Virus record (IMG/VR): IMGVR_UViG_3300042890_002798
Coordinates: 1 to 58,038 of that record
DNA: 58,038 nucleotides
From: a virus
Lineage: Duplodnaviria; Caudoviricetes
Strand: one strand, 5' to 3'
This document shows positions 9,695-56,737 of the stretch, one piece after another. The position numbers and the translations under genes are program-made. The notes under the pieces were generated by a model that ran no database searches, had not been told where the DNA came from, and worked only from the letters and a program-made list of their open reading frames with translations. The first letter of the stretch is position 1, and each line of letters opens with the position of its first letter.

Positions 9695-9700
9695 GCCAAA

Positions 9701-11735: not shown

Positions 11736-11736
11736 A

Positions 11737-30417: not shown

Positions 30418-30757
30418 AAACAGCATTCAGAGATCAATAGTCGCATATTTGCGCACTGTGGTCCGCGACTGTGTGGTTATGGCGATCCCGAATGCGGCGC
30501 GTCGGACGATCAACGGAAAGCCCATGAATGCGGCTCCGGGTTTGCTTCCGGGCGCTCCCGATCTGGTCATAGCCTTTCCCGGTGGCAAGGTTTTGTGGTT
30601 GGAAGTCAAGGCTCCTAAAGGCGTCGTCAGTGATAATCAGGTTCTTGTCCATGAGCGTCTGGGCGAGATCGGGCATACGGTATACATCGTCCGCTCGATA
30701 GATGACGTTAAGGAAGTTATACAAAAATTAAACATAACAACGAGAGAGAAACAATGA
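30401..30757 (+). CDS. VRR-NUC nuclease
   Basis: E..IQ..I; G..PG.PDL; WLEVKAPKG..S..Q. Confidence 0.88.
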   Translation: MRAQIENSIQRSIVAYLRTVVRDCVVMAIPNAARRTINGKPMNAAPGLLPGAPDLVIAFPGGKVLWLEVKAPKGVVSDNQVLVHERLGEIGHTVYIVRSIDDVKEVIQKLNITTREKQ

Positions 30758-31422
30758 CCAAGAAAGCTGTATGGAACAAAGACAACGAGGAATTCTTGTC
30801 AAAGTTGCTAAACGCAGGTGCGACTGCGGCGCAGGCATCCGATGAGATTAATAACAAATTCGACATGTATTTTTCTCGCAATGCAATAATCAGCAAGGCA
30901 AGAAGATTAAAGCTGGAATTTGTCGTCAGGGTTGGAAGGAGTTATATTCCCGGATCTATAAAATATAATCAAACATATAAGATTAAAAAGGCAGATAATG
31001 TTGAGTTTATGAAAGCGTGGAAAGCAAATATCAAGATTCACGAATTGGAATCAATGTTCGGGATCAAGCGTAAATCTATACTTGAAAAGGCAAAAAAGCT
31101 AAAACTTGATAAAAGAGAAATAGATGAAAAGAGGTCGATTAGAGATATCAATTATTCAAAAGATATAAAATTCAAAAAGCTTCCGTCATTCATACGGGAA
31201 AGACAATCCTTTCCCAATCCAAAGGCTCTTGGTCTGAAGCTTTTGGAGCTTCGCAATAACCAATGCAGATACATCCTCGGCAGCGAGAGGCCATCGGATT
31301 TTCTGTATTGCGCTGCGCCAGTGGAGCCTGACTCTCCGGTCCCGTATTGCCCAACCTGTCGGGCGATTGTGTACGTAAAACCGTCAGGGCCGTCGCATAA
31401 GATTTTCAAGCTATACAGATGA
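30754..31422 (+). CDS. gcrA: GcrA-like cell-cycle regulator
   Basis: W....G.....SRNAIISKARRL HTH; LLEL...QCRY..G...FLYC...PYC..C..IVY C-terminus. Confidence 0.8.
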   Translation: MTKKAVWNKDNEEFLSKLLNAGATAAQASDEINNKFDMYFSRNAIISKARRLKLEFVVRVGRSYIPGSIKYNQTYKIKKADNVEFMKAWKANIKIHELESMFGIKRKSILEKAKKLKLDKREIDEKRSIRDINYSKDIKFKKLPSFIRERQSFPNPKALGLKLLELRNNQCRYILGSERPSDFLYCAAPVEPDSPVPYCPTCRAIVYVKPSGPSHKIFKLYR

Positions 31423-39016: not shown

Positions 39017-39353
39017 GGCCATGTCCAGCTTCGGAATGCCTCAGGCTCAGATATGCACGGTTCTGGATATAGATCCTAAAACCTTGAGGAAATATTTCCG
39101 CGAGGAATTGGACAAGGCTATGATCAAGGCCAATGCCAAGGTCGCGGCTAATCTATTCCGCCAGGCCACCAAGGATGACTTTAAGGCTACGACGGCTGCT
39201 ATATTCTGGTCAAAGACCCGGATGGGCTGGAAAGAGCCTGTTCACATGGAGCATTCCGGTTCATTAAGCGTGAATTTCAAAGGCATGTCAGACGATGAGC
39301 TTGACGACTTTATCGCGGAGCAAACGGGAAACCTTAGCGGAAGCTTTGATTGA
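38940..39353 (+). CDS. terS: Terminase small subunit
   Basis: HTH (IDPKTLRKYFREEL), AAIFW.KTR.GWKE; directly upstream of terL. Confidence 0.8.
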   Translation: MSNDQKVKKPGMPPFKPTEENRKMVEAMSSFGMPQAQICTVLDIDPKTLRKYFREELDKAMIKANAKVAANLFRQATKDDFKATTAAIFWSKTRMGWKEPVHMEHSGSLSVNFKGMSDDELDDFIAEQTGNLSGSFD

Positions 39354-40992
39354 AAAATCGCGCCGCCAATGCGAAGCCTCGTTTGTTCACTTTGTCAAGA
39401 AAGCATGGCCCAATATTGAGCCCGGAAACAATTTGATATGGGGATGGCATATGAATGCCATTTGCGAACATCTTGAGGCCGTTTATTATGGAGAAATCAA
39501 TCGTTTACTTATAAATGTTCCTCCTGGGTTTTCTAAATCGCTTTTGACATCTGTGTTCTTTCCGAGTTGGTGTTGGGCGAAGGATCCGCATCTGCGGTTT
39601 TTGTGCGCATCCCATACGCAAAGTCTGGCTATTCGCGATTCGACAAAAATGCGTCGGCTTGTCCAAAGCGATTGGTATCAGGCTCGATGGGGCGACAAGA
39701 TCATTCTTACCGGCGACCAGAACGCCAAGACCAAATTCGAGAATAAAGCGACAGGCTTTAGAGAGGCTGTGGCTGCTGGCTCGATCACTGGCTCCAGAGG
39801 CGACATCGTTATCATTGACGATCCGCATTCTGTCGAGGGCGCTGCGTCTGAGGCCATGCGCAATTCTACGATTGAATGGTTTCTTGAGGCCGTTCCGACT
39901 CGCTTGAACAATCCCGAAACGTCGTCGATTGTTGTCATTATGCAGCGCCTCAATGAGGGCGATGTATCTGGCGTAATCATTGATAAGCAGCTTGGGTATG
40001 AGCATCTCTGCCTGCCGATGGAATTCGAAGAAGACCGGCGATGCGAGACCAGCATAGGCTTTGTAGATCCGCGTGAGGAAGAGGGCGAGCTACTATTCCC
40101 GGATCGATTCCCGCGTGAGGTTGTCGAACGGGACAAAAGGGTTATGGGGCCGTTCGCCACTGCCGGCCAGTTCCAGCAGCGCCCATCTCCCAGAGGAGGC
40201 GGCATTATCCAGCGATCCTGGTGGCAGCTTTACGACGACAACGAAGCCGCAGCTCAGGGACTGAACAGCGGCATGACCTATCCGGATATGGATTACATCG
40301 TCGCCTCGCTGGACACTGCCTATACCGAGAAGCAGGAGAACGACGCCAGCTATCTGACGATCTGGGGAATCTGGCAGCGCGGCGGCTCAGCGGCAAAATC
40401 CATTCTCTCCGTCAAGGGCGAGCGCATCGACCTGATTGACGACAGGGATACGATCCCATGCGCCATGCTGATGCACGCAAAGGAGATGCGCTTGCAGGTT
40501 CATGGCTCGAATGTATTGCGGGAGCCCGGAGAGACTGAGGCCGCTTTCAGAATCAGGCAGAGGGCTGCATGGGGTCTGGTCGAGTGGGTCACGCATATGT
40601 GCAACCAGTTCAAGGTTGACCTGCTGCTGATCGAGGCGAAGGCCAACGGCATGACTGTCGCGGATGAGATCAAGAGATTGAACCGGACGACGAACTGGTC
40701 GGTTCAGTTGATCAATCCCGGCAGCGCGGACAAGGTCGCCAGAGCCTATGCCGCTCAGGCTACATTCTCGAATGGCCAGGTCTGGGCTCCGGATCGGGAC
40801 TGGGCTGATAAGGTCATCACCCAGTGCGAGATGTTCCCGAAGGGCAGGCATGACGACGCTGTGGACTCCACCACACAGGCGCTGAATTATCTCAGGAAGC
40901 GCGGCTTTCTGCATCGTCAGGAAGATATCCTTGCTGACATTGGCGAGAGAGCGACCTACAAAAAGCCGGTCAAACCTATTTACGACACCTAG
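39295..40992 (+). CDS. terL: Terminase large subunit
   Basis: LLINVPPG.SKS; IIDDPH; IMQRL; LDTA; IEAKANG; FP.G.HDD.VD. Confidence 0.95.
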   Translation: MSLTTLSRSKRETLAEALIEKSRRQCEASFVHFVKKAWPNIEPGNNLIWGWHMNAICEHLEAVYYGEINRLLINVPPGFSKSLLTSVFFPSWCWAKDPHLRFLCASHTQSLAIRDSTKMRRLVQSDWYQARWGDKIILTGDQNAKTKFENKATGFREAVAAGSITGSRGDIVIIDDPHSVEGAASEAMRNSTIEWFLEAVPTRLNNPETSSIVVIMQRLNEGDVSGVIIDKQLGYEHLCLPMEFEEDRRCETSIGFVDPREEEGELLFPDRFPREVVERDKRVMGPFATAGQFQQRPSPRGGGIIQRSWWQLYDDNEAAAQGLNSGMTYPDMDYIVASLDTAYTEKQENDASYLTIWGIWQRGGSAAKSILSVKGERIDLIDDRDTIPCAMLMHAKEMRLQVHGSNVLREPGETEAAFRIRQRAAWGLVEWVTHMCNQFKVDLLLIEAKANGMTVADEIKRLNRTTNWSVQLINPGSADKVARAYAAQATFSNGQVWAPDRDWADKVITQCEMFPKGRHDDAVDSTTQALNYLRKRGFLHRQEDILADIGERATYKKPVKPIYDT

Positions 40993-42089: not shown

Positions 42090-42608
42090 ATGAACATGTA
42101 CTATTACCGCTCAAATTCTCCGCTTGCCCTGAAGATCAACAAAATCCTTCGGGACAGGAGGATGGAATCCCAGGACAATAACCGGGAAAAAACAAAGATA
42201 TATTATATCACAAGCTCAAACTGGCGTGGCTTGAGAGGAAGAAATGAAGCGCCTCCTGAGTTAATGGACGCCCAGTTCCCATGGGCTCCGTTCAGATATC
42301 TGGACAGCATCATCCGTGAGGTAGAGTCGGAGTATGGCATCTCCTACGATGACATCAAGGGATCAAGGCGTTCTCCCAAAATGTCGTATGCCAGGCATGT
42401 TGTTTTCTATGTAGCCAAAGAAGCGACAAGCCTGAGCTATCCTGACATTGGCCGTCGCATGGGAGGCAAGGATCATACGACGATCTTGCATGGATACCAT
42501 CGGATTAAAAAGATCGTTGAGGCTGGCGGCGATGAAGCTGATAGAATTATAGCCTTAAAGGAAAAGGCAAAGAACCGTCGCGCTCACAGCGGATATTGGG
42601 GCTGCTAG
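42090..42608 (+). CDS. Protein with a DnaA C-terminal HTH domain
   Basis: AR...Y......SYPDIGRRMGGKDHTTILHG. Confidence 0.85.
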   Translation: MNMYYYRSNSPLALKINKILRDRRMESQDNNREKTKIYYITSSNWRGLRGRNEAPPELMDAQFPWAPFRYLDSIIREVESEYGISYDDIKGSRRSPKMSYARHVVFYVAKEATSLSYPDIGRRMGGKDHTTILHGYHRIKKIVEAGGDEADRIIALKEKAKNRRAHSGYWGC

Positions 42609-45182: not shown

Positions 45183-47435
45183 ATGGCTATACCGTATAAC
45201 CTCCGGCAGGTTCAGCCTCCGCAGGAAGAGCTTCCTGACGAAGAAGTTGTTGATATTCAGGCTCCTGTTGGTGCGCCTGGTATTGGGGCTTTAGCCATTG
45301 ATTTGCCGGATGGTTCGGTATCCATCAATTTCGGCGGCATTCCGTTCAAGCCTCCGGGCGACTCTGAAGAGCATACGGAAAATCTCGCCAAGCACATGGA
45401 TGATACTGAGCTTAGCGGGATTGCCGATACGCTTTTGAAGCATATCCGTGATGACATTTCCCGGCAGGAGCAGCGGCTTCAGGATATTGTGAAGGGCGTT
45501 GATCTTCTTGGAATCAAGCTTGAGGAGCCTCGCTCGGAGCCCGGAGAAGACAGCATTTCCGTTGTCAGGCATCCGCTTTTGCTGGAGGCTATTCTACGAT
45601 TTCAGGCCAACGCCCGTGGCGAAATGCTGCCTGCCGATGGCCCTGTGAAGGTTTCGAATGAAGGCGACCAGTCCAAGATGATGGACGAGGATGCGCGCCA
45701 GCTTGAAAAAGACATGAACCATTATCTGACATCTGGCGCTCCGGAATATTACCCGGATTGCGACCGGATGTTTTTTAGCCTTGCCATGGGCGGAGAGGCT
45801 TACAAGAAAGTCTATTTTCATCCGATCAAGCGCCGTCCGGTCAGCGAAACGATTGACCGTAAGGATTTGATCCTGTCTGAGGGCGCTGTTAGCCTGGAAG
45901 CCAATAGCCGCATCACGCATCGTTGCCGCATGAAGCCGAGCGATGTGAAGCGAATGCAGCTTGCCGGCGTATGGCGTGATGTTCCTCTTGGAGACGCATT
46001 TCTTGCCGGATTGATGGTTAATACTGTTGACACCGCGCTAGAACAGATTTCCGGATTTCAGCCGAAAACTGTTACCGATCCTGAAGACATGGATCGAGAA
46101 ATCTATGAATGTTATTGCGAAATTGATCTCAAGGGATTCGAACATAAGGAGGACGGCGAGCTTACTGGCCTTGCGCTTCCTTATCGCGTCACTATTGATC
46201 GTGATTCTCGCCAAATACTTGAAATTAGACGTTGGTGGGAAGAAAAAGATGAGACATTTACTCGAAAAGAAGTTTTTGTCGAATATATCTTTGTTCCGGC
46301 GTTTCCCGGCGTTAACCTCGGTTTGCTGCATATTCTTGGTAACGCTGATCGCGCTCTTACAGCGGCTTGGCGAATTGCTCTTGACAATGGTATGTTGGCT
46401 AACTTTCCGGGCGGCATTATGGCTCGATCATCCGGAAAGCAGCAAACGACTACGATCAGGGTGGCTCCGGGACAAGTTGCGCCGGTAGATGTTGATGGCG
46501 TTCCTTTGAAGGATGCCTTTATGCCTATGCCTTACCGTGATGTCACGGGAGGCTTTGTCAATATCATCCAGATGATTGAGCAGGCGAGCCAGCGCCTCGG
46601 CGGAACTGCGGAAACGGCAGTTGGCGAGGGCAGGAATGATGCGCCTGTCGGAACTACGATTGCCCTGATTGAGCAGGCGACGCGGGTGATGAATGCCGTC
46701 CATAAGCGTATGCATTCCGCCCAGTGCAAGGAATTTGCTCTTCTGAAAGAGCTATTCAAAAAAGACCCTGAATCTCTTTGGCGTAGTAACAAAAATCCCG
46801 GCTTTGACAGAAATGTTATGCTGCTTCAGCGGGCTTTGGAGAACAAGGATATTGTTCCGAAGTCTGATCCCAACACTTCCAGCCAGACATTGCGCATTCA
46901 GAAGGCGATTGCTCTGAAGCAGGCATCTGCTGCGAATCCGATGCTCTATAATATGCGGGCTGTCGAAGAGCGGTTCCTGTCCATGATTGGCGTTGAGGAT
47001 GCCGCTGATCTTATGAACAATCAGCCTCCGCCTCCGATGCAGGCTGATCCGTCTCCGATGATTGAGGCTCAGGCCAAGATGATTGCGGCGCAGGCCAAGC
47101 TTCAGGATATTCAGGCCAAGACCCAGATTTCTTCCGTGGACCAGCAGACAAAGATTGCTCTTGCCAAAGCCAAGCTTAAAGAGAGCGATACGAAAGCGAT
47201 TCAGGCTCAGACGGATGCGGCCAATCATGCTGCCGACCGGGAGAGCAAGGAAAAGCTTGCCATGATTGACTTTGCTCAATCTGAGCTGGTTCATAAGGAC
47301 AAAATTAGCGAGAATCAACGTCGCGCTGACATTGATACTGCTATGAAGATTGAAAAAGCACAGGAAGAACGTCGTCGTCACGCGATGGATGAAGCTCTTT
47401 CCGCCCAGCAACTATCGCAGAGCGAGACTGAGTGA
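45183..47435 (+). CDS. Portal protein
   Basis: HPLLLEA..RFQA.A..E..P..GPVK; KKVY; PYRVTID; PVGTT.AL.E; Gln/Ala-rich barrel tail. Confidence 0.88.
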   Translation: MAIPYNLRQVQPPQEELPDEEVVDIQAPVGAPGIGALAIDLPDGSVSINFGGIPFKPPGDSEEHTENLAKHMDDTELSGIADTLLKHIRDDISRQEQRLQDIVKGVDLLGIKLEEPRSEPGEDSISVVRHPLLLEAILRFQANARGEMLPADGPVKVSNEGDQSKMMDEDARQLEKDMNHYLTSGAPEYYPDCDRMFFSLAMGGEAYKKVYFHPIKRRPVSETIDRKDLILSEGAVSLEANSRITHRCRMKPSDVKRMQLAGVWRDVPLGDAFLAGLMVNTVDTALEQISGFQPKTVTDPEDMDREIYECYCEIDLKGFEHKEDGELTGLALPYRVTIDRDSRQILEIRRWWEEKDETFTRKEVFVEYIFVPAFPGVNLGLLHILGNADRALTAAWRIALDNGMLANFPGGIMARSSGKQQTTTIRVAPGQVAPVDVDGVPLKDAFMPMPYRDVTGGFVNIIQMIEQASQRLGGTAETAVGEGRNDAPVGTTIALIEQATRVMNAVHKRMHSAQCKEFALLKELFKKDPESLWRSNKNPGFDRNVMLLQRALENKDIVPKSDPNTSSQTLRIQKAIALKQASAANPMLYNMRAVEERFLSMIGVEDAADLMNNQPPPPMQADPSPMIEAQAKMIAAQAKLQDIQAKTQISSVDQQTKIALAKAKLKESDTKAIQAQTDAANHAADRESKEKLAMIDFAQSELVHKDKISENQRRADIDTAMKIEKAQEERRRHAMDEALSAQQLSQSETE

Positions 47436-50400
47436 TGGACATTAAAGATATCCGTGACAAGCAAATCCGCGATGCTTTGATGATGGCGGCTGATCGTGCC
47501 TCCCGTGGCCGCAAGAAAGATTCGCCTAAAGAAAAACCGATGCCCAGGGATTTGGAGACTTTTTACAATCCGGAGGCAGGTTCGCGAATAAAAGACGGAA
47601 TTTTGGAGCCTGGTGACTATGGTCCTAACTATGGCGCAGATGTAAAGAATTGGCGCGAAAAGCGCGGAGCGTATGGTCGGGAAAAAGGCTACAATCCCTG
47701 GGCCGATCCGGAGAATATGTATACTCATCCGTCCGAGGAGCGCCACGACCCGAATGACCCGATTTATAACGTCAGCCCGGAGGAATATCGAAAGGGCGCT
47801 TATGGTCGCGGAGTATATGCTTTAAGGAATGGTGGTCGCGCCGGTATGGCTACAGGCGGCGATCCAACAAGTAATTACATAAGCTCGCTATATCAAAACA
47901 TTATGGGCCGAGAGGCTGATGTGGGCGGCGCTGAATATTGGAAACAGCAGCTTGAAGAGGGAAATATTACTCCTTCAGATATATTGTATAATTTTGCGCA
48001 ATCGCCTGAATTCAAAAATGTTTATCAATCTGATCCGAGCAAGGCTGTAAGCTCTCTTTATCAAGCTGCTCTAGGCAGATCTCCGGATCAGGCAGGTCTT
48101 GATTACTGGAATCAGCAAGTAAAAAGTGGTCTAGGATTAGGAGATTTGGTTTCTGGGTTTACGGGTAGCGAAGAAGGTAGGTCTTACCAAAGCTACAAGT
48201 TCCCTGGACTGTATAACATTAATGATAGTGTTGCCGATCAAGACAGAAAGTATTCGGAACGATTAGTTGCGGATTTGTATCATTCCATTTTAGGTCGTGA
48301 GCCAGATCGGGAAGGTTTTAATTTTTGGACTCGTCAAATGATTGATGGCAAACAATCATATGATGATGTTGCTAATGCTCTTTTCGATTTGCCAGAAGCA
48401 AAAGAAAATTTTGTCAATCAAACTTACAAACAATTTTTGGGTAGAGAGCCGGATGCAGAGGGTAAAAAATATTTTACTCAAGCTCTACAGTCAGGACAAG
48501 CAACGCCTGATCAAATTTATGAAATAATTCAAAATAGCGAAGAAGCTGGCGATTTCGAAATATCTAACTTTATTCAGGATCAATATAAAGGATTGACTGG
48601 GCGCGATCCATCCAGGCAAGAGCTAAACTCAGCATTAGATCAATTAAAAAGTGGAGCTGTTACATTTGATCAGTTTCACTCCAATATGTTTAATTCTCCC
48701 GAATCTCAACAATATCAGGCAAGTAATTTTGAACCGTATCAGGTAGCGAGCGCTGAAGGTTCGGTAACCGTCGCTCCCAAACAGCTTCGAACTGCTTATG
48801 AGTATAGCAAAGCTAATGATGAACTCATTCGAAGCCTTCCTATTGAGCAGCAGGTGGGCGCTCTTCTTCAACAGGAAGGTGGAATTTGGGTTGATAAAAT
48901 TTTAAATCCCAACACACCGAAAGAAATAAAAGATCAAGCTTTAAAGCAATTAGAAGGCATTGTTAATGTTGTAGCTAACCGCGCCGCAGTTGGTTTGACA
49001 GAGAATAGCGGAGGCAAGAAAAGTCCTTGGCGAGGCTGGTTTGATCGTCAGGAAAACGATCCAAAAAGCGTTACCAGTCAAATTTTGGCTCCTTCAGCTT
49101 TTTCCGCAATGAAAATTGGAGTGTCAAAATTAGCTAAAGAAGGCTACAATGCTATTGTAAATCAAGCTATTCCAAACTTTAACAAAGAAGAATATCAACC
49201 AATTATGGATATGATCAAGGGCGTTTTGTCTGGTCAACGTCCTGATATAACCCAAGGTGCAACACATTATAAAGCAAATTATGTCCATCCAGGCTGGGCA
49301 AAAAGGCTCCCTCTTCACACGGATTTAGGAGGAGCGCCTGGAGGAAAGGGACCATATCATCAATTTTATGGAGCCAAGGACAGGGCCGCTGAAGCCCAGC
49401 AGGCCAGATTTGGTGTATCCTATGGTGGCGCAGATGTTGACCCGGCCCTTGCTGGAGCTGGCGCAGGCGTAACTGGCGGTGGCAGTGGGACTGGTTATAT
49501 TCCGGGCGGCGGATCTGGATATGTTCCAGGCGGTGGCGGAATATCTGGACCCGCCGATGTTTCAGGAGCCGGCGGAGATTATACCGGCGGTCATGGCGGT
49601 GGCGGAACCGGGCATGTCGGCGTCGGCACCGGTCATGGCGGCATCCACGGTGGGACACACACAGGAACTCCGCATGTGACTGGCGGCGTTCACACTGCTG
49701 GCCACGGCACGACCTATACCGGCGGTCATGGCGGCCCGCATGTAACGGGTGGCGTTAGTTACCTTGATTCCGGTGGCTATCATCCCGGTGGCTTTCATTC
49801 CGGCGGCGATTTTGGCTCTTATGCGGGCTCGCATGGATTTGGGCATTCGACAGTCGGCCACGGCGGTCATCATGGTAGCCATGTCAGTCCATACCATGGC
49901 TGGTCGTGGGATATGTTCCACTCACAAAACCCTTACGGCATTCATCACAGCTTCAAAAACGGCGGCGCTGTTAAAGACGCTCTCCGCATAGCCAGAGCTT
50001 CAGGTGGCGGCGCATGGACTCGCAAAGAGGGCAAGAACCCTGAAGGCGGGTTGAATGAAAAGGGCCGCGCCTCTCTTCGCGCGCAGGGCCATGACATCAA
50101 GCGCCCACAGCCGGAGGGCGGTTCTCGCAGGGATAGCTTCTGCGCGAGAATGAAGGGCATGAAGGCCAAGCTCACCAGTGCTGAAACGGCCAATGATCCG
50201 GATAGCCGGATTAATAAGTCGCTTCGCAAATGGAATTGTGCGGACGGCGGTGCGATTGATGATGCTCTTATGGTGGCTCGCAAATCTGGCGGAGAAGTCT
50301 GGAACAAACCGCGCCCTAAATCTCTCGGTAAGCCCGAAAAGCTGACATCAAAAGAAAAGGCAAGCGCCAAGCGCATGGCCAAGGCTGCTGGCCGTCCTTA

Positions 50401-50488
50401 TCCTAATCTTGTTGACAATATGCGAGCCGCCAAAGCTGATGGCGGTTCTATTGATGATGCTCTCCGCATTGCGAAGAGGGCTAAATAA
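47432..50488 (+). CDS. Modular protein: DUF4214 repeats, SleB-like cell wall hydrolase, Gly/His region and small basic domains joined by GG linkers
   Basis: Five LY...LGR.PD..G..YW-type repeats; NVVANR..AFS..DIT.GATHY...P.WA..HQFY; SFCARM module; PYPNLVDNM module. Confidence 0.8.
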
Positions 50489-50544
50489 CCGGATATCCGA
50501 AGGCGCTCTTAGGCTATCCTTTTACTTTTTATAGGAATAAAACA

Positions 50545-51900
50545 ATGGCACATCCGTATAAATCAGAAGCGAAAGCTGGTCACAGCAAGAAGCTTGCGAG
50601 CTATGGCGCAAAGAAAGAAGCGAAGAACTGGGCTGGCGAAAAGGCGTTGAACACCGACCGTCAGGCCGGCATGGACATCATTGAAGAAGAGCCGTCCCTG
50701 TCCAAAAAGACCATGGACCGCATCATGCGCAAGGCTGGCGGTTCCGTTAAGGGCAAGGATGCTGTCAAGCGTCTGGATAAGGTTTCCCGCAAGGGCAAGC
50801 GCCTGAAGGCTGCCGATGGTCTCCCGTCCATTGAGGAGCAGCTTAAATCGGCTGAGCGTCTGAAGGAAATCCGCGCCCGCAAGATGCCGGAAGAGGGTCC
50901 GACGCGCGAGGAAGCCGAGAGCATCAATCGCAAACAGCGTTATTCCATTGAGGATCTGGCTGCTCCCGGTCGCAAGAAGGGCGGCAAGGTCTCCCACATG
51001 GAATGGGAACATTCCAAGAAAGATTTGGCCCAGGATCGCAAGCTGGCCAAAAAGCACGGCATGTCGCTTGAGAAATGGGAAAAGTCAAAGCTTGACGAAA
51101 AGCATGACAAGCAGCAGTCGACCGAAGGTCTAAAGAAGGGCGGTCGCGCCATGCGTGGCTCCGGTGGTCCGGTTGCTCCGAAGACGAAGTCCTACACTTC
51201 TGAGAACAAAGTCACCAAATCGGCCAAATCCGGCGATCGCATGGGCGCTCTTACGGAGGCCGCAAGGACGACTGATCGGGTTAAGAAGTTTGGCGGTGGT
51301 GGTCTGACTGAAGAAAAGTCCACGAGCAAGAAAGCCGGCAAGGCCACTAATCTGACGATTAACATTGGTGGTCCCGGTCAGGGTGGCGCGCAGCCGATGC
51401 CGCCGGCTCCTGCTATGCCGCCTGCTCCTCCGCCGCCTCCGCCCATGCCTCCGATGGGACCGCCGATGGGTGGAATGCCGCCTATGGGTCCGATGGGTGG
51501 TGGTATGCCTCCTATGGGCGGAATGCCTCCGATGGGTGGCGCTCCGATGATGCGTCAGTCTGGTGGCCGCGTTGGCAAACAGATTGGTGGCGGCATGATG
51601 GGCGCTTCGGCTCCGGGTTTCGCCAGCAATGTCCCGCCGATGGGCATGGGTTATGGCCAGCAGATGGATAATCAGCAGGTCAATCCGATGGATCTGATTG
51701 CTCTTGGCAATGCGCTTCGTAGCGGTGGCATGGGAATGGGAACGGGCATGGCTCCGCGCGGCTTCAAGAAGGGCGGTCGAGTCAATCCTGACGTTCCGGT
51801 CAAGCAGCCGGGTCGAACGGCTGAGGGCTACGCGAAAATGGATTATGGCTCTGTTAGCGGTAAGGGCCGCCGCCAAAAGATCCTTGCGCAGGAAGACTGA
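50545..51900 (+). CDS. Lys-rich and Pro/Met/Gly-rich protein with about 8 GG motifs
   Basis: AGGA RBS; RKAGGSV, RKKGGKV, KKGGRA, RQSGGRV, FKKGGRV. Confidence 0.8.
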
Positions 51901-51902
51901 TC

Positions 51903-52055
51903 ATGGGCAGAAGGCCGAAGTTTGACAGGAATGAAAAGATCCTCGCAATGCGGCTTTCTGGCGTGACCTATAAAGAAATAGCCTCTGCCTTTGGGATAAC
52001 TAAAGGCAGGGCTTTTCAGATTTGCAAATATATGATGGAAAAAAGAGGAGGCTAA
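51903..52055 (+). CDS. Small HTH protein, 50 aa
   Basis: RN..I..MR..G.TYKEIA..FGITK.R..QI. Confidence 0.7.
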   Translation: MGRRPKFDRNEKILAMRLSGVTYKEIASAFGITKGRAFQICKYMMEKRGG

Positions 52056-52056
52056 A

Positions 52057-52260
52057 ACGAATCTCGATCTGCGATTTTATCGGGAGTTGGAAGACAGAAT
52101 TTCCAGTGAATTAGAAAAGCTCGCTGCTGAATTAATCGCTGGAAAGGCAGTTGATTGGCCTGATTATAAAATGAGGGTTGGTCGGCTGAAGGGTATGCAA
52201 GAAGCTCTTGCATTCGCAAAAGAAGTCCAAAAAGAAGTTTTGGGCGTTGAAAGGAAGTAA
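52057..52260 (+). CDS. Small helical head-module protein, apparent ACG start
   Basis: GAGGAGG RBS 5 nt before ACG; G.A.D...Y...VG...G pattern; in-frame stop at 52033. Confidence 0.6.
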   Translation, partial: TNLDLRFYRELEDRISSELEKLAAELIAGKAVDWPDYKMRVGRLKGMQEALAFAKEVQKEVLGVERK

Positions 52261-52263
52261 GCC

Positions 52264-52680
52264 ATGCCGGCTTTACAGATGTTGCATGATCGCGATCCAA
52301 AAGAAGCTCTTTTGGAGAAGGTAGGCGATCTTTCTGGTATTGAGATATTTGGATCAGACGTTCTGGTTGCCATATATCGCAGGCCAGAAAAAACAAAATC
52401 GGGTATTATTCTTGCGGATTCCACCAGATCAGAGGATCGGTGGCAATCAAAATGCTTTTTGGTCCTTAAATTAGGTCCGACAGCCTATCTGGATGATGAG
52501 GGAAATCGTTTCAGGGACATTAAAGAGGGCGATTGGGTCGTAGCGCGCTGCTCGGACGGCTGGGAAGTCACTCTGAATACCCTGAAAACAGGAATTTCCA
52601 AGGAAGACACGGTTTCTTGCCGGATTTTCTCCGATCACGCAATCCGCGCCCGTGTCGCTGACCCTGATTCCATCTACTGA
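52264..52680 (+). CDS. groES: GroES-like co-chaperonin
   Basis: VLV.....EKTKSGIIL....; VLKLGP.AY; KEGDWV. Confidence 0.88.
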   Translation: MPALQMLHDRDPKEALLEKVGDLSGIEIFGSDVLVAIYRRPEKTKSGIILADSTRSEDRWQSKCFLVLKLGPTAYLDDEGNRFRDIKEGDWVVARCSDGWEVTLNTLKTGISKEDTVSCRIFSDHAIRARVADPDSIY

Positions 52681-52690
52681 GGGCTGAAAA

Positions 52691-53638
52691 ATGGAAGATA
52701 TTGAAGAAAATTTGGGTGAAACCGTCAAATTGGACGAAGATCCCTCTGTTGTTGTTGAGATTGAAGAGCCAAAATCCGAAAAAAAGGCTAAAAACGAGCC
52801 TGATGAGCGTGAAGTTGCTCTTAATGAGATGCGCGCTCAGTATGAAGAGCAGAAAAAGCGCCTTGAGATTGAGCGTAGAGCCCGTGAACAGGCTGAACAA
52901 TATGCCTACCAGCAGGCAAAGCAGGCTCACAGCGCCCGCGCAGAGGCAGAAGACAGCAATCTCCGCACTATTTTGAACGCCATCGCTGCCGACGAGCAGG
53001 TTGCGACAAATGCAGAGCGTGTTTACGCGGATGCTGTGGCTACAGGCGATACCGCACTGGCTGCCAAGGCTCAGCGTGAGATGGCCAGAGTTGAGGCTCG
53101 ATTGCTTCAGCTCGAAAATGGCAAGCGAGCGCTTGAGGAAAGGCTACAGACCGCCGAGGGCAGGGTATCTGAGCCCGAAATGCCCAGGTTTGCGCCTCAA
53201 CAGCCGGCTGATCCTGTTGAGATGTATGCTTCCCGGCTAACGCCCAAAAGCGCAGCCTGGCTAAGATCGCATCCTGAAGCGGCCAATTCAATTAATAAGC
53301 TCACGGCGGCGCATACTGCTGCGGTAGAGCTTGAAGGAATTGAAGCAGAGTCTCCGGAATACTTTGCTTACATTGAGAGCAAGCTTGGTTATTCCGGTGG
53401 CGGGAGAGACAGCAAGAGCGAACCCAGAAGGTCTAAATCCAATATAAGTTCAGCGCCGGTTTCTTCGTCAAGCTCCATGATGGCTCCGCGTTCCAGCGGA
53501 TCATCTGGTTCTATTACGCTGAGCCCTGCTGAAGTTGAAATGGCCATGCTGGCTGAGCCTGATTTGCCGCGTGAGAAAGCTCTGGAAGCTTATGCCCGGA
53601 ACAAACAGGCGCTTCTCCGCGAAGGCAAACTTAATTAA
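52691..53638 (+). CDS. Scaffolding protein
   Basis: Acidic N-terminus, coiled coil, SAPVS, TLS..E..MA......YA.NK C-terminus. Confidence 0.7.
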   Translation: MEDIEENLGETVKLDEDPSVVVEIEEPKSEKKAKNEPDEREVALNEMRAQYEEQKKRLEIERRAREQAEQYAYQQAKQAHSARAEAEDSNLRTILNAIAADEQVATNAERVYADAVATGDTALAAKAQREMARVEARLLQLENGKRALEERLQTAEGRVSEPEMPRFAPQQPADPVEMYASRLTPKSAAWLRSHPEAANSINKLTAAHTAAVELEGIEAESPEYFAYIESKLGYSGGGRDSKSEPRRSKSNISSAPVSSSSSMMAPRSSGSSGSITLSPAEVEMAMLAEPDLPREKALEAYARNKQALLREGKLN

Positions 53639-53649
53639 GGATTTGGACA

Positions 53650-54201
53650 ATGACTGGTTTTGAAAACATCGACATCCCGGATATCCGTTCCTCTGAAGCC
53701 CGTGCTGCATCTCGCGAACCGAAGGCGAGGCCGAAACTGGACTCTACTTCGTCTTCTCTTGCGCGTGCGGAAGCCCGTTTGCGGGAAATCCGTGAAAGCC
53801 TGCCGGAGGGCGGTGCGCTTCGAGACAAATTCTGGGCTCCCCAAGCTCCGGCAGGATGGACTTATGAATGGAAAGTCCGGACGGTTATGAATGAAGAGCA
53901 ATCATCGTATATCGTTGAATTGGCTCGAAATGGCTGGGAAGCTGTCCCGTTGAGCCGCCATCCTGACATGATGCCGGCAGGTTGGAAGGGCGATACGATT
54001 GAGGTTGAGGGTCTGGTTCTTATGGAGCGCCCGTCTGTTCTGACAGAAGAAGACCGCGCTGCTGAGGTACGGGCTGCCCGTGAAGCTGTAGCCACAAAAG
54101 AGGCACAACTTCGGGATGGCAGGGCTAGCGATCTGGGCAAGCGCGAGGTTCAGCGCTTCTCGAAAAGCCGCTCTCCGATTAATATTCCGGGTGACGAATA
54201 A
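53650..54201 (+). CDS. Head-module protein
   Basis: P.GW.YEW....GWE.V....GLVLMERP. Confidence 0.65.
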   Translation: MTGFENIDIPDIRSSEARAASREPKARPKLDSTSSSLARAEARLREIRESLPEGGALRDKFWAPQAPAGWTYEWKVRTVMNEEQSSYIVELARNGWEAVPLSRHPDMMPAGWKGDTIEVEGLVLMERPSVLTEEDRAAEVRAAREAVATKEAQLRDGRASDLGKREVQRFSKSRSPINIPGDE

Positions 54202-54208
54202 GCAATTG

Positions 54209-54237
54209 TTGACTTGAAAGTCAATAAAGGCTAAATA
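54209..54237 (+). promoter_or_regulatory. Capsid operon promoter with a palindrome
   Basis: TTGACT-17-TAAATA; TTGACT-TGAA-AGTCAA inverted repeat. Confidence 0.6.
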
Positions 54238-54406
54238 TTCGCAGACTACGGAATTCTGTCTAGTAATAGACAAAAGAATTAGGTGGGGACCGCAGGGTTG
54301 GTCCCTCCTTTTATAAAGTCGATCCGCGCCGGATTGGCATTCATCTTCTCCGCTAAAATCTCCCACGCGCTGTTGGCGATTAGGCACTCTCTGAATTCAG
54401 GAGGGT

Positions 54407-55045
54407 GTGTTGACAAACACCTTTGCTCCCTTCGGATTCCGTCCAGTTTCGACCAGCAATGGCCCGATCAACTGGCGTGTTTCCACTCGTCGCGTCGCGG
54501 CGGGAAATTCTACGCCCATCTATAAGGGCGACGTTGTCATGCCGGTAGTTGGCACGCCGACGGGTTATATTACGCTTGGCGTTCCTGGCACGATTGCCGC
54601 GACGGTTCCTGCCGCCGGCATCTTCTGGGGCTGCCAGTATCTTTCGACGACGCAGAAGCGGACGGTCTGGTCTCAGTATTGGCCCGGTTCTGACGCGACT
54701 GGCGACGTTATTGCGTTTGTGATTGACGATCCGAATGCTCGCTTTGTCGTTCAGACGAGCGGTTCTTCGTTCCAGATCACTGGCACTAACTCCGCCTTCA
54801 CGTCGTCTCCGGTTGGCCAGTATGCCACGTTCAACGCGGGCGCTGGTTCGGCCACCACGCAGCAGTCTGGCCAGTATCTTGATACGGTCGGAAGCACGGC
54901 TGCCTATCCGTTCATTATCACGGACATGGTCATTGACCCGCCGGGAGCTAATGGCACGGATGCGACGAGCAACTACAACTATGTGGTTGTCGGCTTCAAC
55001 AACGAGTGGCTGCGCAGCAATGCGGGCGTCACTGGCATCAGCTAA
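54407..55045 (+). CDS. Capsid decoration/minor capsid protein
   Basis: N..APFGFRP; G+F.GC.Y; V.DDP..F; immediately upstream of the major capsid gene. Confidence 0.7.
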   Translation: MLTNTFAPFGFRPVSTSNGPINWRVSTRRVAAGNSTPIYKGDVVMPVVGTPTGYITLGVPGTIAATVPAAGIFWGCQYLSTTQKRTVWSQYWPGSDATGDVIAFVIDDPNARFVVQTSGSSFQITGTNSAFTSSPVGQYATFNAGAGSATTQQSGQYLDTVGSTAAYPFIITDMVIDPPGANGTDATSNYNYVVVGFNNEWLRSNAGVTGIS

Positions 55046-55058
55046 GGAGTAGAGACCA

Positions 55059-55970
55059 ATGGCTGTTAATCTTAGCGCCATCCGCGATCTGCTCCTTCCG
55101 GGCCTTCGCGGTGTTGAGGGTAAGTATCCTCAGATCCCGAGTCAGTGGGACAAGGTCTTTGAAAAGGCCAAGTCCAACATGGCTCTCGAGCGTACCGCTG
55201 AAATGCGTTACCTCGGCCTTGCCGCCATCAAGACTGAAGGCGGTGCGGTTAGCTTCGACAACAACGCTTCCGAGCGTTACGTCTATAATCAGGAGCATTA
55301 CGAGATCGGTCTCGGCTACGCGATCACTCGTAAGGCGATTGATGACAACCTGTATAAGACCCAGTTCACGCCCACGAATCTTGGCCTGATCGAGTCCTTC
55401 GGTCAGACGAAGGAAATCTATGGCGCGAACATTCTTAACACGGCGACGACGTATAACTCGGCGGTCGGCGGTGACGGTGTTGCTCTCTGCTCCACCTCGC
55501 ATCCGATTGACGGCGGCGTTGTTGCTAATCGCCCGACTGTCGACGTTGATCTTAACGAAGCCTCGCTGCTTAACGGTATGATCAGCATTCGTCAGAACTT
55601 CAAGGACATCGCCGGCCTGAAGATGTTTGCGCGTGGTCGCAAGCTCATCATTCCGCCGACCCTTGAGCCGACGGCGATTCGCCTTACCAAGACGGAACTC
55701 CGTCCGGGCACGGCAAACAACGACGTCAACGCGATCCATACGACCGCAGGCGGTCTGCCGGAAGGCTACATGGTCAACGACTTCCTGACTTCGACGAAGG
55801 CCTGGTTCCTTCTGACGAATATCAAGGGTCTTGTCTACATGGAGCGTATCCCGTACGAAATGGATATGCAGGTAGACTTCACCACGGATAATTTGCTAGT
55901 GAAGGGATATGAACGTTATAGTTTCGGCTACTACAATTGGCGCTCAATTTTTGGTAGCTTCCCGACCTAA
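55059..55970 (+). CDS. Major capsid protein
   Basis: LLPGL; K.EG; LGYAIT..A..DNLY; GDGVAL....HP; NDVNA; ERYSFG; strong codon bias. Confidence 0.9.
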   Translation: MAVNLSAIRDLLLPGLRGVEGKYPQIPSQWDKVFEKAKSNMALERTAEMRYLGLAAIKTEGGAVSFDNNASERYVYNQEHYEIGLGYAITRKAIDDNLYKTQFTPTNLGLIESFGQTKEIYGANILNTATTYNSAVGGDGVALCSTSHPIDGGVVANRPTVDVDLNEASLLNGMISIRQNFKDIAGLKMFARGRKLIIPPTLEPTAIRLTKTELRPGTANNDVNAIHTTAGGLPEGYMVNDFLTSTKAWFLLTNIKGLVYMERIPYEMDMQVDFTTDNLLVKGYERYSFGYYNWRSIFGSFPT

Positions 55971-55975
55971 TTGAT

Positions 55976-56020
55976 TTAAGTCGCTGTATTTATTCAACAA
56001 TGCAGCGACTTAATATTTTC
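55976..56020 (+). terminator. Hairpin/terminator after the capsid gene
   Basis: TTAAGTCGCTG...CAGCGACTTAA followed by TATTTTC. Confidence 0.6.
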
Positions 56021-56030
56021 GGGTGTTGGC

Positions 56031-56059
56031 TTTACATTATCATTAAGCCAAAGTATAAT
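56031..56059 (+). promoter_or_regulatory. Promoter of the endonuclease cassette
   Basis: TTTACA-17nt-TATAAT. Confidence 0.7.
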
Positions 56060-56092
56060 CTTCAAATCGTAGCTACGATTGGGAGATATGCG

Positions 56093-56737
56093 ATGGTAAA
56101 AAATGTAGAGCTGACATTCGAAGAATTGTCCAATGTTTTGAGTTATGACGCCTATTCAGGTTCTTTTACCTGGAAGGTGACAATTAACTCCAGAGCTAAG
56201 GCAGGAGAAAAAGCAGGCGTTTGGCAGCGTATGCAAAATGGCAAAGATTATTTTTCGATCACTTATAAGGGTCGAAAGTTATCTGGAGCCCAGCTTGCAT
56301 GGTTGCTTCATCATGGCGAATGGCCAGATAGGTCAACCTTCTTCATTGATGGCGACACGACAAATCTTCGGATATCAAACATCAAGCTAGCTGATTACAA
56401 GGCAGAGCGGGTTGTTAGAGAAGATGGTTCTACTCGCTATAAAATGTCTAAGGATCAGCAACGACACTATGGCTTGATGCGCTATTATGGAATGTCTGTT
56501 GGCGAATATGCCGAGATGTTTCGGAAGCAGGATGGCAAATGCGCCATCTGCAATCAGCCGGAAACTGATAAAGATCGTCATGGGAACATTCGTGTTCTAG
56601 CAGTCGATCACTGTCATGCTACTGGCGCTGTTCGGGAACTTCTTTGCTATGCCTGCAATAGTATGCTTGGGCAAGCCAAAGATAACATTGATGTTTTACT
56701 TGCTGGTGCTGAGTATCTCAAAAAGCATTCAGCTTAA
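56093..56737 (+). mobile_element. Homing endonuclease: degenerate HNH plus endonuclease VII domain
   Basis: GGAG RBS, ATG 56093; QDGKCAIC...LAVDHCH.TG.VR.LLC..CN..LG. Confidence 0.85.

Follow-up and report, generated by a model that had tools for sequence, protein, structure and literature searches.

How did a long protein made of unlike modules come to be encoded directly behind the portal gene of this phage, and what is the short element that recurs at its joints? A first-pass annotation had proposed that separate genes were concatenated through a standard linker. We analysed the whole 58,038-nucleotide stretch (IMG/VR virus record IMGVR_UViG_3300042890_002798; hereafter the window) and propose that the protein is a polyvalent capsid cargo, with its repeated helix a predicted docking or loading tag kept at the joints of fused tagged genes, a reading for which we see about an even chance.

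A chain of modules coupled to the portal gene

The portal gene and the open reading frame (ORF) that follows it are laid out below, with the features of the protein in order.

45183..47435, + strand: portal protein, 750 aa (phrog_1216 portal, E 6.1e-16, PHROGs)
47432..50488, + strand: modular putative cargo ("polyvalent") protein, 1018 aa from GTG
47432..47866, + strand: N-terminal segment, aa 1-145, ending NGG..TGG
47453..47497, + strand: N-terminal amphipathic helix, aa 8-22, containing IRDALMMA (relaxed pattern)
47867..48763, + strand: five DUF4214 repeats, aa 146-444 (PF13946, E 6.4e-51, 5 stretches)
48764..49381, + strand: SleB-fold cell-wall hydrolase domain, aa 445-650 (fold comparison)
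49382..49951, + strand: low-complexity tract rich in Gly and His, aa 651-840 (190 residues, of which 64 are Gly and 22 are His)
49952..50011, + strand: junction 1, 20 residues (GG hinge, helix, GG hinge; motif HMM 26.0 bits at aa 841-857)
50012..50239, + strand: DUF6321 module, aa 861-936 (PF19846, E 4e-16)
50240..50293, + strand: junction 2, 18 residues (motif HMM 28.8 bits at aa 935-952)
50294..50434, + strand: module 2, aa 955-1001 (phrog_34011)
50435..50485, + strand: C-terminal cap, 17 residues with no module behind (motif HMM 24.7 bits at aa 1000-1016)

The cargo ORF is coupled to the portal gene: its likelier start, an ATG at 47435 that gives 1017 aa, overlaps the portal stop by one base in the sequence TGATG (47433-47437). 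By tblastn, the portal ORF matches proteins that carry a portal or head-to-tail connecting annotation (at best 46.7% identity).

Pfam, PHROGs and fold comparison bear out the anatomy described in the first-pass annotation (five DUF4214 repeats, a SleB-like hydrolase, a Gly/His tract and two small basic modules), and the three junction strings read exactly as quoted there. The N-terminal segment has no Pfam match and an Atlas search gave no lead (best score 0.80). The DUF4214 repeat region is acidic (pI 4.4) and is also matched in Pfam by the overlapping PBS_linker_poly (E 4e-9), while the two small modules are basic (pI 10.3 for the DUF6321 module, 10.6 for module 2). The first of them had been said to resemble DUF6321, and PF19846 indeed matches aa 867-934 at 59.8 bits (cutoff 28.5); the second is matched over aa 955-1002 by phrog_34011, a 55-position profile (PHROGs, E 4.4e-16).

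With respect to the hydrolase domain, the Hydrolase_2 match lies below the Pfam cutoff (19.1 bits versus 27), and the SleB identity is confirmed by the fold of a predicted model (AF2, aa 445-650, pLDDT 87.2, pTM 0.87). VIA-align pairs this model with the SleB catalytic domains 4fet_A and 4f55 (Z 11.1 and 10.6, rmsd 2.7-2.8 Å, 117 residues aligned), the next chain reaching only Z 2.6, and the top three Foldseek matches are all SleB (probability 0.92-0.99). Furthermore, a Glu-Gly pair is invariant across 10 aligned sequences, and 24 of 30 Atlas matches belong to the Hydrolase_2 set. Independent domains, which structure prediction was expected to give, are suggested at low confidence by a model of the C-terminal part, in which the modules do not pack against each other, the DUF6321 module has a pLDDT of 76-82 and the motif helices fall below 50.

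The modules as separate genes in other phages

The two small modules had been said to occur as stand-alone genes in other phages, and for the most part they do. Of 73 complete DUF6321 ORFs on viral contigs, 63 have no more than 130 aa and stand alone; the module is likewise a gene of its own in the Planktothrix phage Pag-Yong1 (81 aa) and in the pelagiphage HTVC027P (92 aa), and the module end within the fusion (..WNC) coincides with the end of the stand-alone homologues (..WKC, then stop). Module 2 has 3278 matches shorter than 559 aa, and among the best 120 of these, 101 are at most 100 aa long. The order of the modules is not fixed, as it is reversed in the protein P0139, where module 2 precedes DUF6321. 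Searched segment by segment, the cargo segments recur at differing positions in 23, 47, 10, 3 and 114 of 120 long homologues (23 for the N-terminal segment, 3 for the Gly/His tract). Homologues also pair DUF6321 and DUF4214 with ART-PolyVal, PF18814, PF18838, lysozyme families and methyltransferases, and ART-PolyVal is present in four of eight syntenic post-portal ORFs. These sequence comparisons support the view that the cargo segments are independent evolutionary modules that exist elsewhere as separate genes. Since the small modules stand alone, their order is shuffled and the segments sit at varied positions, we would place the cargo protein in the published "polyvalent protein" class.

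Head genes lie downstream of the cargo ORF:

50545..51900, + strand: 451-aa basic protein rich in Gly, Pro and Met, in which [KR]-x-GG-x-V seams recur (sequence)
52264..52680, + strand: GroES-like protein of the head module (Cpn10, 27.7 bits, cutoff 21.1; phrog_3188)
52691..53638, + strand: probable scaffolding protein, 315 aa
55059..55970, + strand: major capsid protein, 303 aa (phrog_371 major head protein, E 4.7e-14)

The 451-aa neighbour matches no family in Pfam or PHROGs and is probably further head cargo: the loci of its tblastn matches contain matches to the window's GroES, scaffold and capsid proteins as well, and in MW202675 a protein resembling it comes, by eye, after large post-portal proteins. 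The 315-aa protein likewise has no Pfam or PHROG family match, and its probable scaffolding identity is taken from position only, between GroES and the capsid protein, which is that of HTVC027P gp56.

A GG-helix element at joints and protein ends

Three copies of the element GG-x-[VI]-x-D-A-L-x-x-A-[RK] set the two small modules apart and cap them. A motif HMM made from 51 distinct instances, which came from 34 of 120 other proteins and none from the cargo protein itself, was scanned over 756 six-frame stretches of the window (65,451 aa); below the three copies, the next-best match, at 16484-16621, has 7.1 bits and by our own arithmetic lies in another frame than the 16005 ORF. Gly0, Gly1, Ala6 and Ala10 are invariant in the 51 instances, these four having been required by the collecting pattern, and position 3 is only Val or Ile although that pattern allowed four residues.

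Three further helices had been put forward as related. Those in the ORFs at 14929 and 21092 do not hold up: they rank 6th and 5th of 57,891 11-mers, indistinguishable from chance, and score about 6, the same as the match at 16484-16621, versus 27-30 for true copies. The N-terminal IRDALMMA helix scores poorly on the strict matrix but matches the relaxed N-terminal pattern of relatives' post-portal ORFs and lines up with the conserved helix in alignment A5, where Ala15 is invariant; on sequence grounds, we take the helix at aa 8-22 to be a degenerate version of the cap helix.

With a score of at least 12 bits, the motif is found in 43 of 120 long homologues, in 13 of the 19 proteins that have 101-558 aa and in 3 of the 101 that have at most 100 aa, and in none of the 63 stand-alone DUF6321 ORFs from viral contigs. 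Every one of the 46 inter-motif segments is at least 47 aa long. The helix is enriched about 8-fold at both protein ends, lying at the extreme N-terminus in 26 of 125 related proteins (3.2 expected) and at the extreme C-terminus in 16 (1.9 expected).

The same helix marks the genes that follow the portal. Across 80 portal-related loci, whose counts are phylogenetically non-independent because the loci were picked by homology and de-duplicated on only the first or last 60 residues, we observe the N-terminal helix in 14 of 253 downstream ORFs, each of which is first or second in line behind the portal, and in 0 of 481 upstream ORFs. In its relaxed form it starts 27 of 58 first post-portal ORFs versus 1 of 465 upstream control ORFs (Fisher, P = 6e-28), and 53 of these 58 begin -3 to +5 nt from the last base of the portal stop. 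The C-terminal form is found in 9 of 197 downstream and 4 of 454 upstream ORFs (P = 0.004). Relatives with unfused genes also have the helix at the head of the first or second post-portal gene.

The helix is nevertheless not universal. The strict motif is rare among portal relatives (only L006/L007, L033/L036 and L080/L082), and about 10 of the 58 first post-portal ORFs have, by eye, no helix at all. Stand-alone DUF6321 genes in loci that match the window's head genes lack it (e.g., L094), and in L008, whose portal is the nearest distinct relative at 63% identity, DUF6321 directly opens the first post-portal ORF, an indication that the helix is dispensable for some modules. It is also optional at joints, since the two small modules are joined by a GG seam alone in P0134 and P0144. 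Conversely, the motif is independent of DUF6321, given that a motif-only profile retrieved P0249, P0250 and P0251, all without that module. Our literature search found no paper describing such a helix or such GG seams.

Possible roles of the element

Given the terminal enrichment and the post-portal starts, "linker" seems too narrow a word for the element; the modules do exist elsewhere as separate genes, their concatenation (as opposed to fission) is a proposed direction of change, and the element would be more than a standard linker. We suggest that a string of small, separately folding modules is made in step with the portal protein, and we infer that it most likely travels inside the capsid and is delivered to the host alongside the DNA, with the SleB-fold domain predicted to cut peptidoglycan during entry. 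The repeated element is a 10-residue amphipathic helix held by Gly-Gly hinges, and throughout the portal family the same helix caps post-portal proteins at the N-terminus and, in many cases, at the C-terminus too. It would be a short docking or loading tag that may bind some head component. If tagged single-module genes were then fused, the tag would have stayed at the joints and would thus now double as a linker.

A plain spacer, i.e., a stiff two-and-a-half-turn helix between Gly-Gly hinges that has no partner, keeps the modules apart and mobile and perhaps lets the chain thread the portal and tail channel, is in our judgment an improbable account. It suits the isolated modelled helices with no fixed packing, the GG-only seams of some relatives and the tie of the motif to multi-module proteins rather than solo ones. 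Passive linkers, however, are rarely as conserved as this element is at its two glycines, two alanines and position 3, and a spacer would serve no purpose at protein ends or on unfused post-portal genes; a plain linker thus does not account for the terminal bias.

It is also unlikely that the protein is a polyprotein in which the GG seams, whether accompanied by the helix or not, are places where a phage or host protease cuts and frees the small basic modules in the capsid or host, the released products equalling the stand-alone proteins of other phages. In line with this idea, the module ends inside the fusion coincide with the natural ends of the solo proteins, stand-alone module 2 proteins have a conserved, propeptide-like leader of about 30 aa that ends Y-K-x-G-G before the module, and the proteases of adenovirus and African swine fever virus use Gly-Gly-X sites. 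The T4-like cyanophage P-SSM7 has V-E-E/G before DUF6321 and an N-terminal leader ending I-E-E/G, both of which presumably fit the Leu/Ile-x-Glu rule of the T4 head protease, but the residues ahead of DUF6321 in S-RIM2 (..VQNE/G) break the strict rule. Cleaved capsid-targeting leaders are described in PMC9026906, whose consulted text does not print the rule itself. On the other hand, none of the 43 window ORFs that were scanned in Pfam and/or PHROGs matches a protease family, and cutting would leave unexplained a helix that lies 4-8 residues past the start Met or in the last 12 residues, nor would a cutting site need the conserved hydrophobic face of the helix. Furthermore, the capsid protein is short and the scaffold-like gene is separate, a layout usual for heads whose maturation involves no protease.

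The motif is selected at the protein level. The three copies in the window share 53-61% nucleotide identity, 9 of the 11 identical residues of copies 1 and 2 are encoded by different codons, and conserved Gly, Leu, Arg and Ala codons differ between independent phages (11 distinct DNA instances, 4 loci). A repeat search gave a single 29-nt family, at 66-86% identity, and synonymous sites in the junction DNA tend to be as free as in the flanking modules. Although module order and content are heavily shuffled, whole modules are bracketed by the element and the phage encodes ERF and YqaJ recombination proteins, this codon divergence makes it very improbable that the element works as DNA, as a short shared sequence for module swapping between co-infecting phages.

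Comparison with known systems

The proposed tagged cargo is most readily compared with the polyvalent proteins of Iyer, Burroughs, Anand, de Souza and Aravind (2017; PMC5512222), which are described in the consulted text as built from solo domains and adjoining phage structural genes. Like those of phage type, the cargo protein is large and links unrelated domains that are also solo genes, lies among late or packaging genes beside the portal and has a peptidoglycan-cutting domain (PF07486 is named there); the main text makes no mention of a shared junction or cap helix. Relatives of the cargo protein carry ART-PolyVal and LPD domains, while the protein itself lacks any ART, MPTase or nuclease domain and consists of DUF4214, DUF6321 and the 47-aa basic module.

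Post-portal minor head proteins of the SPP1 gp7/Mu F family are head-internal and often have effector domains. The cargo protein is likewise encoded directly after the portal, but its N-terminal 145 aa belong to no known family, and no MuF-family match is listed in Pfam at E up to 0.1. The gp7/Mu F proteins are mentioned in the consulted text of PMC5512222.

The proposed tag also recalls encapsulins. With respect to form, it shares with their tags a short peptide on a flexible tether, docking to a head component being predicted here, and the helix sequence is unrelated to theirs. Encapsulin cargo-loading peptides are short and terminal, and dock diverse cargo in an HK97-fold shell; to our knowledge, they never serve as internal joints.

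Finally, P-SSM7 gp194, which bears DUF6321, begins with the leader MKTYSQFIEE, which we take to resemble that of T4. The T4 internal proteins IPI-III and Alt, which are loaded into the head and injected, share a short terminal capsid targeting sequence despite being otherwise unrelated, an N-terminal leader of 10 residues, which attaches to the scaffolding core and is removed by gp21, according to the consulted parts of PMC3012670 and PMC9026906. The cargo element is similar in being common to otherwise unrelated proteins, and differs in that no protease was found and in its form, a GG-tethered helix that occurs at N-termini, at C-termini and at internal joints.

Genome setting of a putative cargo gene

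The window is an entire assembly consisting of a single contig (58,038 bases), and it carries a tailed-phage genome in which a portal, a large terminase, head genes, adaptors, a tail spike and a relative of ejection proteins are all present. The features relevant here are as follows.

Structural features of the window
9008-11735: four SU10-type adaptor paralogues in tandem
16005-21092: ejection-protein relative (1695 aa)
39295-40992: large terminase (TerL)
45183-47435: portal
47432-50488, plus strand: cargo ORF (1018 aa)
52264-55970: GroES-like protein, scaffold-like protein and 303-aa capsid protein
55059-55970: capsid gene

The start of the cargo ORF reads GAG TGA TGG, and the ATG at 47435 is the likelier start because it overlaps the portal stop codon by one base. 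Searching 45183-53638 against the phage collection by megablast returned no match.

With respect to the remaining genes, the four consecutive adaptor paralogues (228, 221, 225 and 232 aa) match the SU10 adaptor family PF24175 (E from 4.7e-10 to 2.7e-21), four being an unusual number for an adaptor. There are two homing-type nuclease genes within the structural module, one encoding an HNH and endonuclease VII fusion directly after the capsid gene (56000-56737), and one encoding an HNH_3 and AP2 protein that overlaps the end of the fourth adaptor paralogue (11611-12228). A GcrA cell-cycle regulator homologue (30754-31422; PF07750, E 2e-11) and a protein with the DnaA C-terminal DNA-binding domain (42090-42608; PF08299, E 2.8e-23) are also encoded. 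GcrA is an alphaproteobacterial regulator, and its homologue here hints at the host group.

The ejection-protein relative matches phrog_4287, a "DNA ejection protein" family, at its N-terminus; it also has a GYADGG seam around ORF residues 1237-1243 (1245-1251 when the frame is counted from stop to stop) and a single DUF4214 repeat (aa 571-615), so that this phage has DUF4214 in two large virion-type proteins, the other being the cargo protein. The basic 451-aa protein encoded after the cargo ORF (50545-51900) contains at least five [KR]-x-GG-x-[VA] seams and a long Pro/Met/Gly tract; no family was assigned to it, and loci with tblastn matches to it also match the GroES, scaffold and capsid proteins of the window.

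Domain composition of the putative cargo protein

The five DUF4214-like repeats, SleB-like hydrolase and Gly/His tract proposed in the first-pass annotation are borne out by Pfam, fold comparison and composition, respectively. DUF4214 (PF13946) matches in five stretches, well above its gathering cutoff (E 6.4e-51, 170.8 bits versus 23.2), and aa 651-840 contain 64 Gly and 22 His. The first small basic module, which had been likened to DUF6321, does belong to that family (PF19846; aa 867-934, 59.8 bits versus a gathering cutoff of 28.5, with the full profile, positions 1-72, covered). Eight further PHROG families, with profiles of 99 to 928 positions, align to DUF6321 through the C-terminal end of the profile or a stretch close to it, and the second small basic module (module 2) matches the 55-position family phrog_34011 at aa 955-1002. 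The N-terminal 145 aa received no Pfam assignment, and an Atlas search with them gave no lead (score 0.80). PF00427, the phycobilisome linker family, likewise matches the first DUF4214 repeats (47867-48180; 37 bits versus a cutoff of 28.7), which probably reflects common helical-repeat ancestry and no link to photosynthesis.

In the specific case of the hydrolase, sequence searches and the Foldseek E values alone are insufficient. Hydrolase_2 (PF07486) scores 19.1 bits, under its gathering cutoff of 27, pairwise BLAST of the segment against a true Hydrolase_2 relative reaches only E 0.011, and no PDB sequence matches at E up to 1. The AlphaFold2 model of aa 445-650, built with nine homologues, has a pLDDT of 87.2 and a pTM of 0.87; its top three Foldseek matches are SleB catalytic domains (probability 0.92-0.99), yet with E values of 0.11-0.29, above 0.001. 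VIA-align settles the fold, with Z scores of 11.1 and 10.6 against SleB catalytic domains (rmsd 2.7-2.8 A over 117 residues, targets of 122 and 128) versus 2.6 for the next chain, and the Hydrolase_2 set accounts for 24 of the 30 Atlas neighbours. On the evidence of the predicted model, aa 445-650 are a PF07486-type hydrolase domain of SleB fold, confirmed by fold and not by sequence score. A Glu-Gly pair at segment positions 38-39 (about aa 482-483), invariant in 10 aligned sequences, is a candidate for the SleB catalytic Glu.

A repeated Gly-Gly-tethered helix

An HMM of the repeated element, GG-x-[VI]-x-D-A-L-x-x-A-[RK], was built from 65 instances (51 distinct) in 34 of 120 other long proteins and searched against the window translated in all six frames (756 stretches, 65,451 aa). 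The three top sites (28.8, 26.0 and 24.7 bits) are exactly the junctions quoted in the first-pass annotation, and the next best match scores 7.1 bits and lies in a different frame from the annotated ORF at that place. The three copies have only 53-61% of their nucleotides in common; copies 1 and 2 agree in 11 residues, nine of which are encoded by different codons, and the codons differ again in copies from other phages (11 distinct DNA instances, from four loci only), which indicates selection on the peptide rather than on the DNA. Both Gly, as well as the Ala at three and at seven residues beyond the Asp/Asn, are the same in every one of the 51 instances, which is partly built in by the collecting pattern, and position 3 is only Val or Ile, though the pattern allowed four residues. 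A literature search with the motif strings gave nothing about phages by title among the matches listed.

Further copies had been proposed in ORF 14929 and at the end of ORF 21092; these score no better than the match in a non-coding frame and were excluded. All of the best sub-threshold matches in real ORFs (scores 0.8 to 6.3) fall near a protein terminus.

Sub-threshold helix matches
ORF 14929-15522: about aa 29-39, near the N-terminal end
ORF 16005-21092: about aa 23-33, near the N-terminal end
ORF 21092-23119: residues 665-675 of 675, at the C-terminal end
Portal 45183-47435: about aa 716-726 of 750, near the C-terminal end

Modules occur as independent genes

Both small modules exist as stand-alone genes elsewhere, as had been suggested. 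DUF6321 is a protein of 81 aa in Planktothrix phage Pag-Yong1 and of 92 aa in pelagiphage HTVC027P (gp52), both ending in WKC, the point where junction 2 begins in the cargo protein. A DUF6321-bearing query retrieved 80 viral contigs, of which 79 have a DUF6321 match, 73 of them within a complete ORF; these ORFs are mostly short (63 of at most 130 aa, six of 131-400 aa, four longer). Matches to the GroES, scaffold and capsid proteins of the window are also present in about 20 of the 80 loci, and one of the loci (L094) has an 84-aa DUF6321 gene about 1.1 kb downstream of the capsid gene. For module 2 there are 3278 matches in proteins under 559 aa, and 101 of the best 120 are in proteins of at most 100 aa; the typical stand-alone form has 84 aa and a conserved leader ending Y-K-x-G-G. 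In its abundant version (P0140-P0245) this leader begins M-R-P-S-R-G-M-G, and it looks like a propeptide or the targeting leader of another phage lineage. No paper was found under the name DUF6321, and the phage literature on DUF4214 includes none on virion proteins by title.

The interval from portal to GroES holds two large ORFs in the window versus about eleven small genes in HTVC027P (MN698241; 11454-13765), several of which are strongly basic and many of which begin on the last base of the preceding stop codon. These small genes include a solo DUF6321, a module with a SAYA motif and one with WVD..PCGR..YPKCVP, and in cyanophage S-RIM2 a single 355-aa protein strings together the same small modules.

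Furthermore, the segments are not always fused in one order, the pattern that would have spoken against separate origins: module 2 precedes DUF6321 in one homologue (P0139), a ParB-like insert separates the two in another (P0126), and every segment of the cargo protein is found at other positions in other proteins. Structure prediction, for which independent domains had been anticipated, agrees in part. AlphaFold2 modelled the C-terminal 187 residues with low overall confidence (pLDDT 56, pTM 0.31), but the cores of DUF6321 (pLDDT 76-82) and module 2 (71-76) are better predicted, and the motif helices (pLDDT below 50) pack on nothing.

The helix accompanies fusion and marks post-portal genes

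The element is associated with fusion. With a threshold of 12 bits, 43 of 120 long homologues contain it, in one to five copies, as do 13 of 19 proteins of 101-558 aa but only 3 of 101 proteins of at most 100 aa, and none of the 63 stand-alone DUF6321 ORFs has it. The 46 segments between motifs are 47-752 aa long (median 122), with clusters at about 47, 77-85 and 200 aa that are the sizes of whole modules.

The helix is also enriched at protein ends. A 9-residue helix matrix gave 155 matches in 125 proteins, beginning within the first 20 residues in 26 proteins (3.2 expected if uniform) and ending within the last 12 in 16 (1.9 expected), with several proteins having both; 67 of the 155 matches have no preceding GG, many of them being N-terminal copies.

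Since the strict motif HMM found few matches among relatives of the portal, the 80 loci gathered with the portal protein as query were scored with the helix-only matrix and a relaxed pattern, in counts that ignore shared ancestry. Of 1982 plus-strand ORFs, 25 contain the helix, nearly all (two excepted) downstream of the portal, versus two matches in 306,737 aa of the opposite strand. At 8 bits or more, an N-terminal helix begins 14 of 253 downstream ORFs versus none of 481 upstream ORFs, and each of the 14 directly follows the portal gene or comes second after it; in three loci (L025, L026, L029) a 147-aa gene and the next gene, of 936-1018 aa, both begin the helix at residue 7. Among 58 distinct first post-portal ORFs, 27 have the relaxed pattern in their opening 30 residues, versus 1 of 465 upstream ORFs (Fisher P = 6e-28, kinship ignored), and many of the other 31 are visibly variants of the same helix. 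Of the 58, 53 start between 3 nt ahead of the final base of the portal stop and 5 nt beyond it. IRDALMMA, the helix near the N-terminus of the cargo protein that the first-pass annotation had called related, fits this relaxed pattern and aligns with the conserved helix of the N-terminal-segment alignment, in many rows of which a [YF]-A-D-G-G seam follows. At the C-terminus a form of the helix is seen less often (9 of 197 downstream versus 4 of 454 upstream ORFs, P = 0.004).

A motif-only profile (18 positions, hence of little power) searched against 1.84 billion representatives gave nine matches at E of at most 0.001, including three multicopy proteins without DUF6321, one of which has ART-PolyVal. 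Two of the nine, a TPR_10 repeat protein and a low-complexity repeat, are false.

The helix as a candidate tag

Because the helix is found at the start of unfused post-portal genes, at the end of some of these and at the module joints of fused ones, it is, judging from sequence patterns, best explained as a functional tag that was kept when tagged genes were joined. Fusion of genes already tagged would leave the tags as joints, and the Gly-Gly seams would give the helix freedom to move. A more specific scheme, argued by analogy and in our view doubtful, would make the helix a portable address label in aquatic phages without a protease: a protein tagged at an end by way of the Gly-Gly tether would be taken into the head close to the portal, in the manner of the T4 leader, and fusion would turn the labels into joints, one gene then delivering a multivalently anchored cargo chain. 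The weak terminal helices of the portal, the ejection protein and ORFs 14929 and 21092 would then join a helix-to-helix chain that orders the cargo for exit. Predicting the complex of a monomeric portal with the N-terminal 50 aa, from their respective alignments, gave 0.00 in both runs versus a mark of 0.32, a result that, with no controls, is uninformative either way.

Several observations run contrary to a tag. Solo DUF6321 genes occur without the helix in loci that match the head genes of the window, in the closest distinct relative the ORF next after the portal begins directly with DUF6321, two relatives connect modules through the GG seam alone, and the strict motif is rare among portal relatives, whose counts ignore shared ancestry.

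The strongest alternative is that the seams are cut by a protease, as in viral polyproteins cleaved at Gly-Gly-X. Cleavage would fit the leader of the solo module 2 proteins and a V-E-E|G site ahead of DUF6321 in P-SSM7, but no protease family was matched by Pfam or PHROGs in the 43 window ORFs scanned, the capsid protein is short with its scaffold encoded as a separate gene, and terminal copies of the helix would have no purpose. A protease of the host or of an unrecognised family may still act. It had been proposed that separate genes were concatenated through a standard linker: the modules are indeed independent, but an element that is enriched at protein ends and starts unfused genes is more than a linker, and a plain spacer is accordingly less likely. 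A recombination boundary acting at the DNA level is also less likely, given how far the copies differ in nucleotides and codons. Overall, the observation of a repeated joint between modules is confirmed, and its interpretation is supported only in part.

The finding offers a concrete handle on how polyvalent domains are joined and loaded into heads that lack a scaffold core and protease of the T4 type. In a large group of aquatic phages, among them relatives of pelagiphages and roseophages, post-portal proteins bear a short, conserved GG-tethered helix at their starts, joints and ends. Were it a loading tag, foreign proteins could be packaged into these phages by means of it, and domain accretion would be explained by the fusing of genes already tagged; the hypothesis is directly testable. 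DUF6321 and the 84-aa module 2 family, very abundant small proteins of marine phages, are probably among the contents of the capsid.

Comparison with known systems

Polyvalent proteins are assembled from solo domains, are encoded next to the packaging genes of phages and are presumed to travel with the DNA, with PF07486 listed among their rarer domains (PMC5512222). By its sequence features, the cargo protein belongs to this class of Iyer and colleagues. It combines several unrelated domains (the class has 2-15), namely DUF4214 five times, the SleB-fold domain, DUF6321 and the phrog_34011 module, together with two unassigned segments, and it lies among packaging and late genes, its start overlapping the portal stop, with TerL at 39295-40992 and the capsid gene at 55059-55970. 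Domains of recognised polyvalent proteins (ART-PolyVal, LPDs, PBECR, lysozyme or PF07486) are represented by its own PF07486-type domain and, in homologues, by PF18760, PF18814 and PF18838; 145 longer homologues join DUF6321 and DUF4214 to ART-PolyVal, PF18814, PF18838, three lysozyme families and methyltransferases, and eight post-portal ORFs from portal-related contigs comprise four with ART-PolyVal, one with Hydrolase_2 and three without a Pfam match. As for the class, packing into the virion and delivery with the DNA are putative. The main text of PMC5512222, supplements aside, makes no mention of linkers, boundaries, demarcation or glycine, and of its two uses of "junction" the one displayed refers to Holliday junctions; the available part of PMC10149686 gives no account of post-portal genes. 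Pfam shows no MuF or SPP1 gp7 minor head family in the cargo protein at E up to 0.1.

The nearest functional analogue is the capsid targeting sequence of T4, a short leader common to otherwise unrelated injected proteins (PMC3012670 and PMC9026906, as far as their accessible text goes). The likeness is one of function only, with no family relationship: the N-terminus of the cargo protein is unlike the 10-residue T4 leader, and no head protease of the gp21 type was matched in the 43 scanned ORFs. The cargo protein is a variation on the known polyvalent kind, its new feature being a helix common to starts, joints and ends.
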